Source of the DNA: a virus
UHGV virus genome: UHGV-0155057
DNA length: 10,202 nucleotides
Strand: one strand, 5' to 3'
Below the pieces are notes generated by a model. That model was not told the origin of the DNA. It saw only the letters and a list, made by a program, of their open reading frames with translations, and made no database searches. Of this stretch, positions 23-10,202 are shown one piece after another; within the stretch, counting starts at the first letter, position 1, and the number at the start of each line of letters is the position of its first letter. The position numbers and the translations under genes were made by a program.

Positions 23-51
23 AAAGAGCGCCAACAAGGCGCTCTTTTTTT
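23..51. terminator. Bidirectional rho-independent terminator hairpin at the 3' end of the tailspike gene
   Basis: Inverted repeat 23-32 / 38-47 (aaagagcgcc ... ggcgctcttt), 10-bp stem with 5-nt loop aacaa, followed on the plus strand by a T-run through 51 and preceded by an A-run. Tailspike stop codon (complement of 50-52) abuts the stem. The U-tract is good on the plus strand and weaker on the minus strand. Confidence 0.5.
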
Positions 52-2032
52 AAAATCCAACGTTATCGTCCAATACAGCACCAGTGCCTGTAGAGTTAAC
101 TCCATCTGCAACGCTATTCCATCTTGTCCCGATAACCGTGTTATTCACACCTGCTTCACGCACTGCGGAACCTGAACCACCAGATGATGAAATAGTTGAA
201 TTTCTTAACTGAATACCTCTTGATTTTACGTCTATATAGATTCCGGCCTGAGATGTATTGGAGTAATCAAAGTTACTTATTGAGTTACCTGAAGCTATTA
301 CGGCAATACTGTTCTCAAATCTTAACCCCTCCATACGTGTATTTCTAATAACGTTATTCGACACAATACCAATAGTTAGACCAACAATAAGTATTCCTTG
401 CGTGTTATTAGATAAACCTCTTGTGCCTGCATTATCAACAATATTGTTTGAGATATTAAACCCGTTAAAATTATTTGTTACCTCGTCCCTGTATACGTAA
501 ATTCCAGCGATGGTAGAATCAGTTATCGTATTACCAGTTATGACAATATCTGTCATGTTTTGGCTTTCCCATTCTCCTGCGGCTCCATACACTCTTATTC
601 CGCGTTTGCAGTTTGTTATTGTATTTCCACTAACTACGTGTCCCTTGCAGTTTAGATCACCAAAAAAGATACCATCATCTCCGGATGAAAGTTTATTGTT
701 TTCGATGCGACTAAAGTCACATCTTTGGTTATCGATAGCGTTACCTAAGAATCCTTCTATCGTGTTTCCTGATGATGAGAAGTGTTTTTGGCTTTGGGCG
801 CTTACACCCTGATTATATGGATATCCTGGTTTACCTGATATATAACAATCTTTTACGCTGTTGTAGTATGCATAAGATTCGTTAAGTTCAGGATATGTAT
901 ATGGCTGTCTAAAAAAAACTCCCCAATTGCATGAACTAAAATAACAATCTTTTACAGTGCAACCTGAAACCCCGTCAAATATTATAGTTGTTCTGTCGTA
1001 ATCTATTCCATCATTTCCACAGTTATTGGCGAAACATTTTTCAATTGTTACTCGAACACAGAAAAGATTATTATCATAGTCTCCAGATACTCCTACAAAT
1101 GGTTTTTTAAGGTCAGTCGCTCTGCATTTGTAGATGTGTATATCAGAAAGACCAGCGTTGACAATTACCCCTCTGCTTGTTAATCCATTGGAACCATCGA
1201 AAATAATGTTTTCTATTGCCGAATTACTACCTGTAAATCTCAGCATAACGGCATTGCTTGCTTTCGACTCAGTTATTGTTGCATTTTTAAATGTTTTACC
1301 ATGCTGAATTTGTATACCATTACCTGATACAAGGTATGTGTTTGCAACACCATCAATATTGCTTGATGAAGCAATTGCATTATTAACAGCTTCCGTGTCA
1401 TCAGTAATACCGTCTCCATAAGCTCCAAACATCAATGGGTTTACTACATCAGCATTAATGCGTAACCAAGCCGAGCCACCAACAGTTTTAACTATAGTCC
1501 CGTTGTTATCAGAGTAAGATTCACCATGTAAAACAGCGCGAAATCTACCACCACCAATCCCTGTTCCATCTGTGTGTTGCTTAAGAGTTATTATTTGGCC
1601 ATCAACCGTTGGCTCTATTGTTCGTAATGTGACAATGTCTGGACATACTCCTATATATTTTTGCCCATCAAAAGAAGAGAGTCTCTGCTCAAGCTGATCC
1701 GGGTCATACTTCAGCACATTAGGAAAATAGAACTGCTGCGCACCGTACGCATCATAAACAGCCATAGAATGGCCTTGCACAGTTACGAATTTGGCAATCT
1801 GTCCGTTATATACAGGATAACCAGCAGTGTTAATGATGATTGGTTGCGATACAGGAACGTGAGAGCCGTCTTCGTTCTCCACATAAACCTGAATCTGGTT
1901 TTCAGGATTTACAGGGTCAGTGTCAATTTTACCGATATAAATTTTGCCATTGGCTACAGCTTTAAAAGAACGAGCCATAGTGAAGAGTTGAGAAGGCATG
2001 CTTACCACAACATTTGCGGTGATATCTGACAT
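50..2032 (-). CDS. Phage tailspike protein: P22 gp9-type N-terminal head-binding domain plus a divergent right-handed beta-helix receptor-binding/depolymerase domain (660 aa)
   Basis: The track ORF 50-2080 contains [70 protein letters not shown], which from memory closely matches the first ~110 residues of P22 tailspike ([13 protein letters not shown]...[25 protein letters not shown]...). I trimmed the start to the ATG at complement 2030-2032 ([10 protein letters not shown]), which has GGAG 8 nt upstream on the minus strand (tggagcaatgaaATG). The remainder is rich in N/G/S/T/I/V repeats typical of parallel beta-helix tailspikes. Confidence 0.85.
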
Positions 2033-2057
2033 TTCATTGCTCCAGACGAATGATATG

Positions 2058-2080
2058 ATGCAACCACGATGTGATTGCAT
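2058..2080. promoter_or_regulatory. Candidate operator: 23-bp imperfect palindrome in the divergent tailspike/mnt intergenic region
   Basis: ATGCAACCAC-GAT-GTGATTGCAT: the 10-nt arms match 9/10 as reverse complements, centred at 2069. It lies between the tailspike ATG (2032) and the mnt-like start (2154). In P22 the Mnt operator is a near-symmetric site overlapping a promoter in the equivalent region. No promoter hexamers could be assigned confidently. Confidence 0.35.
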
Positions 2081-2434: not shown

Positions 2435-2512
2435 ATGCAAAGAGATATGATGAATATTGCGTTCTACATATTTGGTTTTTGCACGTTCCTGGTGTTTGAA
2501 AAGCTATTCTGA
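2435..2512 (+). CDS. Possible 25-aa hydrophobic peptide (MQRDMMNIAFYIFGFCTFLVFEKLF) immediately downstream of mnt; speculative
   Basis: ATG at 2435 is preceded by CGGAGG (2425-2430, short 4-nt spacer), 21 nt after the mnt stop. The peptide has a strongly hydrophobic core resembling a single transmembrane segment. It sits where P22 carries sieA, and its 3' end overlaps the convergent gp16-like stop. No homology evidence. Confidence 0.25.
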   Translation: MQRDMMNIAFYIFGFCTFLVFEKLF

Positions 2513-4501
2513 CAACGCATCAGACTTAGCCCCCTGCGTCAGAGCGTTAATTGCCTTTTGTGCCTGCTGCATTGCTTTCTCAAAGGCTGTTGATCCGCGT
2601 GGGGTGTTTGCCATTCGGAGCATTGCATTTCTGAATGGTTCGCTCTCATAGGCGCGAGTAAGAAGTCCGTAGCTTACTGCTGCGCCAGTTGTCGCTGGGT
2701 TCATTGCCGTCCCATACCCAATAATGAACGGGATAGTTTGCTGCCCTGTAGGTGTTGTTACTGCCGCTTTTGCAGCCTGCTGCGTGGATTGCAGGTAGTT
2801 TTTTAATCCATTCAGATAAGCAGCGTCCTGCCCCTTAAATGTGATGCCAGTCTGGTTTTGCAGGATGTTAAGCTGCCGAAGGAACTGGTCAGGGGAACCA
2901 CCTGATTTCTCCATCGCCTTTCCAATGATGCCATTGCGCATTTGCGCCCTGCCAACACGACCAACTGAGTTATACAGAGTCTTAATTTCCGATTTGTTCT
3001 TGCTGAATAGCATGTTGTTGACAACTTCTGGCGTCAGATCGCCTTTCATGAGAACATTCTTCAGCCTGGTATTCTTGAGTTTCGCTGCTTCGTCAGCATA
3101 GACGGCATTGGCCTGCTGATATTTACGGAGAGTATCGTTGCCAAGATTCTGACCAATGGCACCATTGATATCGTCGGTCATTGCCTTGTAAACGCGCTGA
3201 ATGGCAGCATCGGAACGGTTTGGTAACACTGGTCGCTCACCCTTCACGTCCATTCTGAACTGGCTGCGCAGATCGCTTAATTGCTTCAAATCCAGATTTA
3301 CCGGACCATCAGGACCAGCATTGCGAACAAGCTCATCACGATAGGACTGAAGTTTTGAAATAGTCTCGTTATCAGCAACCTTACCAAGCTTCTGCAGGTT
3401 AGATATTTCTGTATCAATCTGCTGAATTGCTCTTGCAGGCTGAATGTTTATTCCCGCCATAGCATTCTGAACCTGCTCCAGTCGATTTCCTGCAGCGCGA
3501 CGAATTCCTGATGTTTTCGCTTTAAGGCTGTCAATAACAACCGCTGGATCATACTCACCGAATTTATCAGCAAATCTCTGAACCAACTGGCTTCTCGCTT
3601 CCTGTTGCGTTGCTCTCATTCCGCTTGTGCCAGCCAGGGGGATATTTTCTGCTGTCGTTTGCGCCATTTTTCCGACGCGGGAAGTAGGCTGTAACAGGTC
3701 GGTGGTGTGCAGAGGCACTCCTTCACGCTCTGCAAATCTGATAGCTTGCTGCGCTTCTGGTGCAATAGCACCACGAACGCCACGATAAGCAGCGCCTAAT
3801 CCACGTCCGGCAGCGTTAATAGCGCCGCCAGCCAGAACGCCAACGCCTAAATCGGTAGCGAGTGCTTCCGCATCATCTTTCGCACTATTTGCAGCAAGTG
3901 ACCCGACTGCGTTTTCAGCGAGAAGGCGAGTTGCACCCTGAGCGATTCTACCAGCGAGTGTTGGTGCCTGTGTTGCCGCTCTCTCAATGCCAGCAGGAGT
4001 GAGGTAAGGCAATGCCTCAGAAAATACCCTGCCCTCTGTAGTTTGTGGAGTCAGCGCGCCTTGCTGAAGGCCAAAGTCCTGCTCTAATCCCTGCGTTGTT
4101 ACTCGTGGCGCTGGGTGATATGTCCCATCGCCAATTCCGAGTTTACCGCCAGCCCAAGCCGCCGCGCTTGTTACAGCATCGGCAACTGATGCAGGTATGT
4201 TTGCCACGTTCACGCCAGCCTGCACCAGTCCGCGACCAGTCTCTTTTACTGCTTCACCAAGATCAGACATAAATCCACTTTGCTGTGGTTGTTGCTGTGC
4301 TACTGGTTGTTGTGTCTCCACTGGCTGCACAGATGGCAATGGATAGGCAGCATAGAAAGCTTGCTTAGCCTGCTCTGCATTTTCTCCGGCTTGCGGGGCA
4401 ACGACTTCATTGAAGTATTGCTCCTGAGCCTGCGCTTTTTGTTCTGGTGCTAACGCCTGATACTGTGGAGAGGCGATAACATCTTTCCATGCTTTAGCCA
4501 T
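2504..4501 (-). CDS. Phage ejection (DNA-transfer/injection) protein, P22 gp16-like by synteny (665 aa)
   Basis: Long minus-strand ORF with an Ala/Gly/Gln-rich composition typical of podovirus ejection proteins. It is the last late gene before the mnt/tailspike region, the position of gene 16 in P22. Its start overlaps the upstream stop as TAATG (complement of 4499-4503), indicating translational coupling. Confidence 0.65.
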   Translation of the reverse strand: MAKAWKDVIASPQYQALAPEQKAQAQEQYFNEVVAPQAGENAEQAKQAFYAAYPLPSVQPVETQQPVAQQQPQQSGFMSDLGEAVKETGRGLVQAGVNVANIPASVADAVTSAAAWAGGKLGIGDGTYHPAPRVTTQGLEQDFGLQQGALTPQTTEGRVFSEALPYLTPAGIERAATQAPTLAGRIAQGATRLLAENAVGSLAANSAKDDAEALATDLGVGVLAGGAINAAGRGLGAAYRGVRGAIAPEAQQAIRFAEREGVPLHTTDLLQPTSRVGKMAQTTAENIPLAGTSGMRATQQEARSQLVQRFADKFGEYDPAVVIDSLKAKTSGIRRAAGNRLEQVQNAMAGINIQPARAIQQIDTEISNLQKLGKVADNETISKLQSYRDELVRNAGPDGPVNLDLKQLSDLRSQFRMDVKGERPVLPNRSDAAIQRVYKAMTDDINGAIGQNLGNDTLRKYQQANAVYADEAAKLKNTRLKNVLMKGDLTPEVVNNMLFSKNKSEIKTLYNSVGRVGRAQMRNGIIGKAMEKSGGSPDQFLRQLNILQNQTGITFKGQDAAYLNGLKNYLQSTQQAAKAAVTTPTGQQTIPFIIGYGTAMNPATTGAAVSYGLLTRAYESEPFRNAMLRMANTPRGSTAFEKAMQQAQKAINALTQGAKSDALSE

Positions 4502-5616
4502 TAATCACCCCATAGTGAAGAAAAGTTACTGCTGGCTGCTGGCTGTGATACCTGTGCAGGTTGAGATTGCTGCCGCTGAGATTTACCAACATTAACGTTA
4601 TATTGTTGGTTGTAATTGTTGGTGTATTCCTGAATCTCACGAATCGACTGCTGCATAGCCTCCGGGCTTGAATAGTCAACCTGCGGCATCCCCTGAAAAT
4701 ACATCTTCGCTTCTGCAACGGTGTTAATACCACTGGCACCCATGTCCCTTGCTGCTGCCACCCCCTGATTCTGCATTCTTCCCTGAATACGTTGTGCTGA
4801 GTTATATAACTGGCGCTGCTCTTTTCCTGTTAATCGGCTGCGAACATCAGCACCAATTGCCGGGTTACCTGCACCGCCTGTCATTCCTGTCATGAAATCG
4901 AGAGCAGAAGCGTCTGCATTTGCGATCGCGTCGATATCCTTCTTCATGGCATAGTTTTGTGCTGATGCAGACGATGTTGCAGGCGCTGCGATTGAACTGG
5001 CAGGAACGCGAACCATATTCCCCTCGTTGTCGATGCCTTCGTAGAACGCATTAGCCCCAGCGCCGTGAAGTTTCCCGCCTACCGTTACAGTTCTGCCATC
5101 TGATAACTGAACTGTACGCTCATCATTACCAGCGGTTCCTCTTGTTGACGCTCTCTGCATTGCCAAATCCTGCCCGCGTCGCGCAGTAGAAGCAGATAAA
5201 TCCTGACCGCGCATCGTGATGTTCTGACCTCGTGCTGTTAGCGCCTCGCCAGCCTGATTGCTGCGGATTGTCTCTGCAAGTTTTCCGCGATCAATCTCAC
5301 GCCCAACGATTCTGTCTTGCGCCTGAAAATATTGTTCTGGACCAAGAGCAGCCATTCCAAGGTGATCAACAAACTCACCAAATCCTGAAGGATTCTGCTG
5401 ATACATCTGAGCAACGTTATTAGGGTCAACACCGACGCGAGTCAGTTCCTTGGCGTTGTTTTGCAGCCATGATTGCATTGCTTCTGGAGACGATGACGCA
5501 AGGCGTGCGCCAGCCGCTAAGGTGCCGATAGAATTACGCTGGTCTTCATCAATGAATCCCATGCCTTTACGAACGGATTCAATCTGGTCTGGATATTGAG
5601 TAGCCAACTGACGCAA
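4501..5616 (-). CDS. Phage ejection protein, P22 gp20-like, apparently 5'-truncated (likely gene remnant)
   Basis: The minus-strand frame is open only up to 5640 (in-frame stop at complement 5641-5643). The track start at 5616 is TTG and no ATG follows until codon 19. The longest possible product is about 379 aa against roughly 430-470 aa remembered for gp20 homologues. Its 3' end is coupled to the gp16-like start. Assignment is by synteny and composition only. Confidence 0.5.
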
Positions 5617-5640
5617 AGCACCGCGATGGCAAGGTGTGGG
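5604..5640. other. Putative deletion/recombination junction where a 5'-truncated late gene meets a 5'-truncated early-left gene head-to-head
   Basis: The plus-strand recombinase frame opens only at 5604 (in-frame TAG at 5601-5603) and the minus-strand gp20-like frame closes at 5640. Both genes lack their expected N-termini and the two open frames overlap within this 37 bp. Confidence 0.5.
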
Positions 5641-6254
5641 CTATGGTGCTGGCTTATGTCACGAACCGGGCAATCATGAAACGCCTGGACGATGTTTGTG
5701 GCAAAGCAGGATGGCGCAATGAATACCGCGACATTCCCAACAACGGCGGCGTTGAATGCGGCATATCAATAAAGATTGATTCCGAATGGGTAACCAAATG
5801 GGATGCTGCTGAAAACACGCAGGTAGAAGCCGTCAAAGGTGGTCGTTCAGGTGCAATGAAGCGCGCTGCCGTTCAGTGGGGAATCGGTCGGTATCTGTAT
5901 AACCTTGAGGAAGGTTTCGCACAAACATCTCTCGACAAAAAGCAGGGATGGCACAGGGCAAAACTCAAGGATGGAACAGGATTTTACTGGCTCCCTCCAT
6001 CGCTGCCAGGCTGGGCAATCCCAGCATCAGATAACAAACCATCACCAGAAAATACCAACCAGAAATCTCCATCGGTTGACTGCGAGCAAATCCTGAAAGA
6101 CTTCAGCGATTATGCGTCAACAGAAACTGACAAGAAAAAACTCATCGAGCGTTATCAGCGTGACTGGCAATTAATGGCTGGCAACGAGGAGGCGCAGGCT
6201 AAATGCGTTCAGGTAATGAACATCAGAGTTAACGAACTAAAACAGGCGGCATAG
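5634..6254 (+). CDS. Rad52/Sak-family single-strand annealing protein (phage recombinase), apparently N-terminally truncated
   Basis: Contains [21 protein letters not shown] and [23 protein letters not shown], which I recognise as the conserved core of Rad52-like phage annealing proteins. The frame opens only at 5604 and roughly 25-35 N-terminal residues appear missing. Possible starts are GTG 5634 (track) or ATG 5643, which has AAGG 8 nt upstream. Confidence 0.6.
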
Positions 6255-9377: not shown

Positions 9378-9654
9378 CCTGCAACTTGCCGTTAAAGGTG
9401 AATACTTCGATGCCATGATTCGCAGAGAGAAAACAGAAGAGTATCGCCTGTGTAATGACTATTGGAATAAGCGAATTATGTTCCGGGAGTATGACCGCCT
9501 GATTATCACAAAGGGATATCCGAAGCGCGACGACTACAGCCGTAGAATTGACGTCCCGTATGACGGATATGAAATAAAGACAATCACACATCCACACTTC
9601 GGCGATAAACCGGTAAAGGTATTCGCGATAAAGGTGAATATCGGCAATGAATAA
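9370..9654 (+). CDS. ASCH / PUA-like (DUF3850-type) domain protein (94 aa)
   Basis: GTG start at 9370 with GGAGG 7 nt upstream, overlapping the upstream gene by 8 nt. The N-terminus (L.VKGEYFDAMIRREKTEEYRLCND) fits the ASCH-type K-x-x-E-x-R pattern and the small beta-barrel length. Confidence 0.65.
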   Translation: MANLQLAVKGEYFDAMIRREKTEEYRLCNDYWNKRIMFREYDRLIITKGYPKRDDYSRRIDVPYDGYEIKTITHPHFGDKPVKVFAIKVNIGNE

Positions 9655-9688
9655 CAATCCTCGCACTCGCGGGGATTTCTTTTATCTG

Positions 9689-9714
9689 AACTCGCTACGG
9701 CGAGTTTTGTTTTA
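9689..9714 (+). terminator. Putative weak intrinsic terminator or attenuator
   Basis: Hairpin aaCTCGC-tacg-GCGAGtt followed by the T-rich tract TTTTGTTTT. The GC stem is only 5 bp, so this is weak. Confidence 0.3.
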
Positions 9715-9726
9715 TGGAGATGATAA

Positions 9727-9894
9727 ATGCACTTCCGAGTCACAGGAGAATGGAATGGAGAGCCATTCAACAGAGTTATCGAAGCAGAGAACATCAACGA
9801 CTGCTATGACCACTGGATGCTATGGGCGCAGATAGCACATGCAGACATAACCAATATTCGAATTGAAGAACTGAAAGAACACCAAGCCGCCTGA
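9727..9894 (+). CDS. Hypothetical small protein (55 aa) between two terminator-like hairpins
   Basis: ATG 9727 with GGAG 7 nt upstream. Translation is MHFRVTGEWNGEPFNRVIEAENINDCYDHWMLWAQIAHADITNIRIEELKEHQAA. The TGA stop (9892-9894) lies in the loop of the downstream terminator. Preferred over the overlapping track ORF 9647-9835. Confidence 0.4.
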   Translation: MHFRVTGEWNGEPFNRVIEAENINDCYDHWMLWAQIAHADITNIRIEELKEHQAA

Positions 9895-9909
9895 TGGCGG
9901 TTTATTTTT
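9884..9909 (+). terminator. Rho-independent terminator at the end of the early-left gene block
   Basis: Stem GCCGCC (9886-9891), loop TGAT, GGCGG(T) (9896-9901) with flanking A:T pairs, followed by TTTATTTTT. Confidence 0.55.
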
Positions 9910-9916
9910 GCCTGAT

Positions 9917-9932
9917 TTGCAGGTTCGATTCC
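9917..9932. other. tRNA T-arm-like 16-mer (TTGCAGGTTCGATTCC); possible attachment-site core remnant, not a tRNA gene
   Basis: Contains the GGTTCGATTCC T-loop consensus with a 5' stem half, but no matching 3' T-stem, acceptor stem or upstream tRNA body. From memory it resembles the T-arm of an arginine tRNA (argW-type) used as an integration site by P22-like/KplE1-type elements. Confidence 0.3.
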
Positions 9933-9951
9933 CTATTCGGAGATAGCACTC

Positions 9952-10152
9952 ATGCAACACGAACTACAACCTGATTCACTGGTTGATTTGAAATTCATCA
10001 TGGCTGATACTGGCTTTGGTAAAACCTTCATCTATGACCGGATTAAGTCCGGCGACCTGCCTAAAGCCAAAGTTATCCACGGGCGAGCAAGATGGTTATA
10101 TCGTGACCATTGTGAATTCAAAAATAAGCTCTTAAGCCGCGCCAATGGGTAA
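9952..10152 (+). CDS. xis: Excisionase / recombination directionality factor, AlpA-family winged helix, TorI-like (66 aa)
   Basis: GGAG 9 nt upstream of ATG 9952. The translation (..LVDLKFIMADTGFGKTFIYDRIKSGDLPKAKVIHGRARWLYRDHCEFKNKLL..) matches the excisionase pattern of a helix, I/FYxxI/LKxGxxPK, then a G-R-x-x-RW wing. Its size and position at the prophage end are as for TorI of KplE1 and the Sf6/HK620 excisionases. Confidence 0.8.
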   Translation: MQHELQPDSLVDLKFIMADTGFGKTFIYDRIKSGDLPKAKVIHGRARWLYRDHCEFKNKLLSRANG

Positions 10153-10202
10153 AATAGCGGGTAAAATATTTCTCACATCTCAAAAACACCATTCCAATCA
10201 AT

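Follow-up and report, generated by a model that had tools for sequence, protein, structure and literature searches.

A T-arm fragment of argW in the torI leader of a P22-like prophage is almost certainly not the attachment core and possibly a regulatory site

Introduction

In elements that integrate into tRNA genes, the block of identity shared with the host normally runs from the crossover to where the tRNA has its 3' end. The virus genome UHGV-0155057 (10,202 nucleotides; "the window" denotes this whole stretch of analysed DNA) carries a short piece of a tRNA T-arm, TTGCAGGTTCGATTCC, in the leader of an excisionase gene. Is this 16-mer the core of the attachment site, and does the excisionase gene lie inside or outside the element? 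The original prediction, made from the DNA letters, considered an attachment core possible, pointed out that its position upstream of xis might leave xis outside the element, and named a relic of an earlier or tandem integration as a further possibility.

Results

A deleted prophage with a KplE1-type recombination module

The gene content of the window was determined with Pfam and BLAST (Table 1). A P22-like tailspike gene, whose match to the endosialidase N-terminal extension falls below threshold (25.7 bits, cut-off 26.3), is followed by two ejection-protein genes, the first of which (ORF 2504-4501) had no Pfam match at E <= 0.001. The second, of the gp16 type, is joined head-to-head with a Rad52-family recombinase gene that may itself be 5'-truncated; SSB, exonuclease and further early-left genes follow, ending at torI. 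The junction at about 5614/5615 (window 5560-5700) was spanned by none of 5426 complete E. coli genomes, and the arrangement looks like an internal deletion of the head, lysis, replication and immunity regions. Since no complete E. coli genome spans the junction, we regard the window as a deleted, defective P22-like prophage that extends from the tailspike to the attR-proximal end.

The right end of the window is the recombination module of KplE1 (CPS-53), HK620, Sf6 and CUS-3, with IntS, TorI and attL/attR at argW. A module of the KplE1 type had been predicted, and the adjacent genes are indeed of the IntS/TorI type that targets argW. RefSeq names the product of the excisionase gene 'response regulator inhibitor TorI', and the protein is 100% identical to many TorI proteins in the databases. 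The leader is the same as in K-12, including an identical 16-mer, as are the GGGTAAAAT repeats, and the order RDF-attP-int (RDF, recombination directionality factor) is that of Sf6. The 16-mer is likewise identical in a lysogen, in Sf6 and in CUS-3.

Within the excisionase leader, the 16-mer forms the first element of the TorI/IntS module at its extreme left edge, between torI and the last early-left ORF with its terminator hairpin. This hairpin closes the early-left block, matches the 'tL4 terminator' annotated in HK022 (X51962) and is the mosaic boundary with the recombination module: homology to HK022 and Stx phages ends at about window position 9907-9910, and lambda-type xis modules part from the window directly after the T-run. 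Downstream of an ORF that ends at 9654, and before the last early-left ORF, come two more terminator-like hairpins, arranged in tandem at 9656-9677 and 9688-9707; counting 9884-9903, the + strand has three such hairpins within 250 nt upstream of torI. The scan of both strands over 9600-10202 gave five terminator-like sites, with 0.7 expected.

Table 1 Features of the window and of other loci
Feature	Locus	Position	Strand	Basis or remark
P22-like tailspike gene	window	50-2080	-	P22 head-binding domain and beta-helix
Ejection-protein gene, 665 aa	window	2504-4501	-	BLAST: among Sf6 'DNA transfer protein' genes
gp16-type ejection-protein gene, 5'-truncated	window	4501-5616	-	Pfam Inj_translocase from profile position 83
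Rad52-family recombinase gene	window	5634-6254	+	Pfam match from profile position 29
Last early-left ORF, 55 codons	window	9727-9894	+	followed by terminator hairpin
Terminator-like hairpin AAGCCGCC-TGAT-GGCGGTTT with T-run	window	9884-9912 (hairpin 9884-9903)	+	terminator scan
16-mer TTGCAGGTTCGATTCC	window	9917-9932	+	argW nt 46-61; 'attR core' in CUS-3; within 'pI' and 'bsq2' in Sf6
T-loop box GGTTCGATTCC	window	9922-9932	+	phylogenetic footprint, from aligned leaders, inside the 16-mer; contains GTTCG
Shine-Dalgarno sequence GGAGA of torI	window	9939-9943	+	direct reading; conserved in alignment A3
torI, 66 aa, excisionase/RDF	window	9952-10152	+	ORF list, RefSeq
Two direct GGGTAAAAT repeats	window	10147-10167	+	overlap the torI stop codon and continue past it
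P-arm inverted repeat (example)	L089	~2755-2790		present in all diverged loci
P-arm inverted repeat (example)	L003	3231-3270		present in all diverged loci
int-upstream box	L091	2928		
int-upstream box	L099	2929		
int-upstream box	L102	2929		
int-upstream box	L117	1928		
int-upstream box	L112	2776		

The 16-mer is a piece of argW

The 16-mer is the sole match to its sequence in the window when up to three mismatches are allowed. It is identical at 16/16 positions to nt 46-61 of E. coli argW, the 75-nt gene of tRNA-Arg(CCU), which reads ...GGGCTAATTGCAGGTTCGATTCCTGCAGGGGACACCA (L008 728-802). These nucleotides begin with the last two bases of the variable loop, run through the 5' strand of the T-stem and the T-loop, and end two bases into the 3' strand of the stem. 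Identity stops after C61, with CTATTCGG in place of TGCAGGGG, and neither a complete T-arm with the acceptor 3' strand nor a cloverleaf is present at the site. ARAGORN detected no tRNA in the window, which makes the 16-mer an orphan fragment. The predicted orphan T-arm fragment between the early-left block and xis is therefore there in sequence and position, and its assignment to an arginine tRNA of the argW type was correct. By arithmetic estimate, 2 x 10.2 kb should contain an exact 16-mer about 5e-6 times; as the match is, moreover, to the very tRNA that the adjacent module targets, chance can be excluded.

The attachment core lies beyond torI

The crossover core of KplE1 is CTGCAGGGGACACCAT (PMC2951348). 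This sequence lies about 108 nt downstream of torI; the window ends with ...CAATCAAT, about 24 nt short of it, and intS lies beyond the left end of the window. Alignment A1 shows no break in collinearity among K-12, the AF26 lysogen, Sf6 and the window between the 16-mer and the end of torI, and the first three remain collinear via the two GGGTAAAAT repeats to the core. Comparison with an empty-site strain had been proposed for locating attL and attR; in the present comparison of lysogen, phage and chromosome, the sequences, that is the dsdC side on one hand and the P' arm and int on the other, diverge only after CTGCAGGGGACACCAT, and not at the 16-mer.

The same picture was obtained from 79 torI loci in IMG/VR, of which 29 stop at the torI stop codon and about 50 extend to the core. 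In those that reach that far, torI is followed at a constant offset by the core CTGCAGGGGACA (up to ...CCA in most), and this in turn by many differing right flanks. The 16-mer in these loci is always flanked by torI on the right and by phage early DNA on the left. The commonest right flank of the core in the E. coli-type loci is GATACCCTTCAAACGAAATCTACC...GTAAAAGATGGGTTTGG and not the dsdC-side sequence of K-12; it may belong to another element that often lies downstream of these prophages at argW.

An identity of 16/16 to argW is what would be expected between the attP and attB copies of a core, and a 16-bp direct repeat does flank the prophage body. The search for such a repeat, also proposed at the outset, thus returned a second copy at the other prophage end, which is argW itself at attL, the box standing at the right end. 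The CUS-3 record even labels both copies as cores. Against a prophage that would end at the 16-mer and exclude torI stands, besides the divergence after CTGCAGGGGACACCAT, the fact that torI and the P arm are packaged in phage genomes such as Sf6, whose virion DNA contains box, torI, core and int contiguously. For excision in vitro, a 135-bp attR suffices that lacks the 16-mer, its left primer being the 3' end of torI (PMC3509656); the published recombination assays (PMC2951348, PMC3509656) thus argue against the 16-mer as the core. Recombinants between the two copies were not found either: a chimeric query of argW(1-61) and the torI leader was covered to at least 80% in none of the 5426 complete E. 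coli genomes.

The 16-mer is therefore almost certainly not the attachment core, and the opposite reading, which the junction comparisons already refute, retains practically no probability. As the real core lies downstream of torI, the xis/torI gene is within the element, and the concern that it might fall outside is unfounded. IntS arm-type sites share TAAA, and the attR substrate used in vitro starts at CTCTTAAGCCGCGCCAATGG, window 10128-10147 (PMC2951348, PMC3509656). The two GGGTAAAAT repeats, kept in all diverged modules, are presumably the IntS arm-type sites of the P arm and would mark the start of the functional attR.

Ends and annotations in the CUS-3 and Sf6 records

The CUS-3 record (CP000711) begins with an 'attL core' and ends with an 'attR core', both of which are the 16-mer. 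In CP000711.1 they correspond to the argW T-arm (L002 1-16) and to the copy in the torI leader (L001 2018-2033). They are a real direct repeat, but one of the two is simply argW. The true core CTGCAGGGGACACCAT is found at L002 16-31, and the left end of CUS-3 continues as TGCAGGGGACACCATTTATCAGTTCGCTCCC..., which is the P' arm of KplE1 and Sf6, so CUS-3 shares the KplE1-type module; its attL runs on as TGCAGGGGACACCATTTATCAGTTCG..., identical to that P' arm, which speaks against the 16-mer as a core. Since its ends were set by the wrong 16-bp repeat, the record is missing torI and the P arm at the right, and at the left it begins 15 nt too early. Judging from the CUS-3-like lysogen AF26 (L007), used here as a surrogate for the RS218 chromosome, the true right end should include both.

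In Sf6, 'pI; possible integrase expression promoter' is annotated over L003 2944-2971, box included. The Sf6 annotation 'bsq2', which follows HK620, belongs to the 'boundary sequences' at lambdoid mosaic junctions and starts at this same junction; the 16-mer lies 5-8 nt inside the joint at which unrelated early-left or lambda-type xis modules meet the torI module. The bsq2 feature differs in that it spans the whole 240-bp torI region and is annotated without the tRNA identity or the cross-genus footprint described below.

A footprint across Enterobacterales

TorI homologues at 51-86% identity were compared from loci in many Enterobacterales. In nearly all of them the core (A/T/C)TG(C/T)AGGG(G/A)AC(A/G)CCA follows the RDF stop codon by about 90 nt (L102, L110 and L126 deviate), so these modules target an argW-type tRNA; every TorI-family module with a readable core targets an argW-type 3' end. 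The next relatives of TorI are AlpA proteins with 32-38% identity, and the one examined, L127, lies beside a tRNA-Lys gene, differs in gene order and lacks the box.

Upstream of the RDF start, the central part of the 16-mer recurs as (C/A)AGGTTCGATT(C/T)C in the 12 module lineages of alignment A3, whose RDF proteins are 70-86% identical. It was found in E. coli, Enterobacter, Atlantibacter, a MAG, Serratia, Citrobacter, Pantoea, Edwardsiella, P. stewartii, Hafnia and Cedecea, with GTTCG 28-29 nt before the RDF ATG in most lineages (35 nt in Serratia) and the Shine-Dalgarno sequence 11-12 nt after the box in most. Among the non-coding columns of A3, 9924-9930 and 9932 alone (TTCGATT.C) are invariant, eight within nine columns, and the GG at 9922-9923 is present in 11 of the 12 sequences. 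Mean pairwise identity amounts to 0.94 in the box, compared with 0.32 upstream of it, 0.60 in the spacer with the Shine-Dalgarno sequence and 0.66 in the first nine codons.

Lineages differ in the stem bases 5' of the box (GCAGG, CCAGG, ACAGG, ATAGG, GCCGG), although all modules target a tRNA that ends in TGCAGGGGAC(A/G)CCA, their cores implying a GCAGG T-stem in the hosts. Because these bases vary while the end of the target tRNA is constant, the constraint appears to act on the box itself and not on tRNA identity. Tracking of the host tRNA by the box stem, through gene conversion or target mimicry, was rejected on the same grounds, as the cores imply GCAGG where boxes have CCAGG, ACAGG, ATAGG or GCCGG.

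No box was found in Klebsiella, whose RDF gene overlaps the one before it, in Dryocola, where a clean deletion between terminator and Shine-Dalgarno sequence removes it, or in Cronobacter, Mixta, Rahnella, Tatumella, Rouxiella and L125; in L124 and Xenorhabdus it has decayed. Being absent or decayed in about ten lineages, it is dispensable. The 79 near-identical E. coli-type loci contained five singleton variants in the 16-mer, some of them inside GTTCG, and thus gave no sign of extra constraint at shallow depth. By comparison of the leaders, GGTTCGATTCC is a phylogenetic footprint, and the box is likely to be functionally constrained; its central 11-13 nt, (CA)GGTTCGATTCC, seem to be under purifying selection in many lineages.

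Origin from the attachment site

In KplE1-type attP sites a degraded T-arm occupies the 16 nt left of TGCAGGGG (TGCTGAGTTCGATGTA in Serratia, GCTTCAAGTAGATGTC in E. coli), of which most lineages retain a degraded TTCGATGT left of the core; the corresponding stretch of attB is the 16-mer itself. L125 (51% identity), the most distant of the TorI-family modules, has cCAGGTTCGATTCC and TGTAGGGGACACCA contiguous in its attP, so that the same 13-mer adjoins the core, and has no leader box. Because the T-arm is contiguous in that attP, the leader box of the other modules can be understood as a second, paralogous copy of the T-arm of the att site. That it is an extra copy also follows from the T-loop-like remnant TTCGATGT which attP retains on its own account.

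We consider the 16-mer very likely to be derived from argW or the att site. The box would have originated by duplication or rearrangement of the T-arm segment of att, possibly through duplication of the att region or a deletion within a tandem array at the argW hotspot, where tandem neighbour elements are visible. Like displaced or duplicated tRNA 3' fragments at other att sites, it stems from the target tRNA, whose orientation it shares. It differs from them in that it is the segment 5' of the crossover (5' T-stem and T-loop) without the 3' end, and in that it lies about 310 bp from the core, across the RDF gene and the P arm, and not at a junction of element and chromosome.

Two other histories were considered and rejected. 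That torI was inserted into an unbroken tRNA 3' half does not fit with an attP that keeps its own T-loop-like TTCGATGT directly left of the core. A leader that is, from box to ATG, a decayed argW 3' half would require GGAGATAGCAC to correspond to GGGGACACCAT; the match is 7/11 with a 2-nt gap, its GGAG is the Shine-Dalgarno sequence, and it is not significant.

Past the end of the window, the P arm of the diverged loci contains a conserved inverted repeat, CCCCTGCA-N16-TGCAGGGG, with a fixed spacing of 16 nt (Table 1); its two arms enclose the degraded T-arm. Where the tRNA differs, compensating changes occur in Rouxiella (CCCCTACA/TGTAGGGG) and Edwardsiella (TCCCTGCA/TGCAGGGA); the change in Rahnella is uncompensated. 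The repeat may be an extra core-type site or a cruciform. Furthermore, every KplE1-type attP has GT(A/C/T) where the tRNA has TCC (TTCGATGTnTGCAGGGG vs TTCGATTCCTGCAGGGG). This invariant difference of two bases breaks the T-stem in attR; L125 does not have it, and its T-arm is intact.

Candidate functions of the box

From its conservation, the box is most likely a cis-acting protein-binding site, for which TorI is the leading candidate. Binding of TorI to the GTTCG in the torI leader would result in autoregulation of the excisionase. According to Panis et al., excision of KplE1-type prophages is controlled mainly through expression of the RDF, and an RDF operator in the RDF leader would exert feedback on this main control point. 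GTTCG at 9923-9927 is the core pentamer of TorI sites as defined in PMC2951348, where TorI no longer repressed PintS once GTTCG/GATCG/GTCCG in sites I3-I5 had been changed to CAAGC. By the coordinates in that study, sites I1-I5 on attL are the 8-mers CAGTTCGC, CAGTCCGC, CAGTTCGT, TGGTTCGC and CAGATCGT. The box 8-mer AGGTTCGA agrees with I4 (TGGTTCGC) at 6/8 positions, the pattern being (C/T)(A/G)GTTCG(C/T), and with flanks, AGGTTCGATTC against TGGTTCGCTTC, at 9/11. The box adjoins a gene of the module, as I3-I5 adjoin PintS, and the P' arm of Cedecea has the same array of three GTTCG adjoining TTGACA.

There are also differences from the mapped sites. These form cooperative arrays with 10-20 nt phasing, whereas the box is solitary: no second GTTCG occurs between terminator and torI, and the next ones are on the P' arm, outside the window. 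The box is located 5' of torI and not on an att arm. It has A after GTTCG, where all ten array sites of E. coli and Cedecea have C or T. The invariant block continues for 5 nt (ATTCC) past the TorI 8-mer, which recognition by TorI alone does not explain. A scan of 9600-10202 detected no sigma-70-like promoter near the box. We therefore put forward only tentatively, as a reading that may or may not hold, that the 16-mer is an att-derived, paralogous, non-core segment whose central box is a candidate TorI operator coupling torI expression to the recombination proteins.

A close second candidate for binding the box is IntS, through its core-binding domain. It is conceivable, if unlikely, that the box is a copy of the left (B-type) core half-site in attB, bound by the core-binding/catalytic domain as an auxiliary or decoy site, which for example could loop to the arm-type sites of the P arm 230 nt downstream and modulate torI expression or directionality. 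The identity block of attP and attB starts with (C)TGCAGG, and directly left of it attB reads GGTTCGATTCC, which is the box; its invariance would then follow from that of the host tRNA. Most lineages have TTCGATGT at the equivalent position of attP, and L125 has the full T-arm there, which suggests that this integrase family may read T-loop DNA. However, the site left of the core in attP varies far more than the box (GTAGATGT, TTAGATGT, TTCGGCGT, TTCGAAGT), which would be odd for a decoy of the same protein, and the box is 230 nt from the nearest arm sites and is not needed for excision in vitro (PMC3509656).

A scar without present function, left by a tandem or earlier integration or when att was duplicated, would fit the position of a tRNA-derived 16-mer exactly at the boundary of a mosaic module, its dispensability in vitro, its loss or decay in many lineages and the ancestral-like arrangement of L125, and tandem elements occur at the argW hotspot. 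Decay comparable to that of the flanks would be expected of a neutral relic, yet 8/11 positions do not vary in 12 lineages with leaders that are otherwise 32-60% identical, and we judge this explanation to be rather improbable. Of the relic that had been suggested originally, the derivation finds support in the 13-mer that is part of a long att identity block in L125; the box is too conserved for a neutral one.

The box could act in the RNA, if UUCGA(UUCC) in the leader paired with the U(C/U)GGAG of the Shine-Dalgarno region and attenuated translation of the excisionase. In the minimum free energy structure of the E. coli leader, UUCGA (9924-9928) is paired with UCGGA (9937-9941), RNAalifold pairs the 3' half of the box with the Shine-Dalgarno sequence in 9-11 of the 12 sequences, and their spacing is nearly fixed. 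But the consensus energy is -1.1 kcal/mol with a covariation term of about 0, the helix comprises 4-5 bp with G-U pairs, and both partners may be invariant for other reasons. All Rfam matches of the leader were far below the gathering scores, STnc130 on the minus strand with 24 bits vs 55 and a gap over the box. Such an RNA element thus has little probability. Two further structures were rejected: long-range pairing of UUGCAGG in the leader with CUGCAG of the core is possible in E. coli and unconserved in other lineages, and a T-arm-like hairpin (GACAGG...CCTGTC) is perfect in Edwardsiella and P. stewartii, absent elsewhere and forms no consensus structure.

That a sigma-70 promoter spans the box and drives torI and int, as 'pI' in the HK620 and Sf6 annotations would imply, is very doubtful: TTGCCT upstream is a fair -35, but the scan of 9600-10202 gave nothing promoter-like, the putative -10 (CCCTAT/CTATTC) is a poor one and unconserved across lineages while the box, its supposed 'spacer', is conserved, and the Shine-Dalgarno sequence is too close to leave room for a start site.

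Similar boxes upstream of integrase genes

Solitary (C/G)(G/A)GTTCGA(T/A) boxes (CGGTTCGAT) also stand upstream of argW-specific int genes in five loci (Table 1). They lie after the core, between direct and inverted arm-type repeats and about 20-25 nt before the int ATG, at a constant +427/428 from the RDF ATG in four of the five. The arm repeats differ by locus (ACGGGTA, GGGGCA, GATGGTA, GTGTATA) and none matches the GGGTAAA sites of the P arm; because of this mismatch these are probably tandem neighbour elements at argW, which have a T-loop-like box in the int promoter in common. For the same reason the Hafnia-type int downstream of the core was rejected as the cognate partner of the RDF; it more likely belongs to a tandem neighbour.

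Discussion

The module itself is already known, as is the 16-mer under other names, namely as 'attR core' in CUS-3 and within 'pI' and 'bsq2' in Sf6. New with respect to the accessible literature are the finding that the att-core annotation is wrong, the box as a cross-genus footprint, and the 13-mer within the att identity block of L125. In the accessible papers on the KplE1 module, attL, attR, intS and torI are what defines it, protein sites were mapped only on attL and the 135-bp attR, and the leader box is unmentioned (PMC2951348, PMC3509656). How torI is regulated is not described in these open-access papers, and a full-text literature search for the 16-mer string found nothing.

The element boundary is thereby fixed, with torI in the prophage and attR just past the window. 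The mis-set ends of CUS-3 (CP000711) can mislead the calling of prophage boundaries at the argW hotspot.

A wider and rather speculative view is that the RDF, the core-binding domain of the integrase or both read the T-loop DNA of the target tRNA (GGTTCGAT), and that a piece of att was duplicated as a feedback operator. If this were true, an att-site sequence would have been recycled as regulatory DNA, the identity of the box to an invariant host tRNA across genera would be explained, and the CGGTTCGAT boxes upstream of int would be the same device. The analysis is a modest addition to a known system, consisting of a candidate regulatory site and a correction of boundary annotation, and the conserved, att-derived box in the torI leader offers a concrete candidate for the control of excision.
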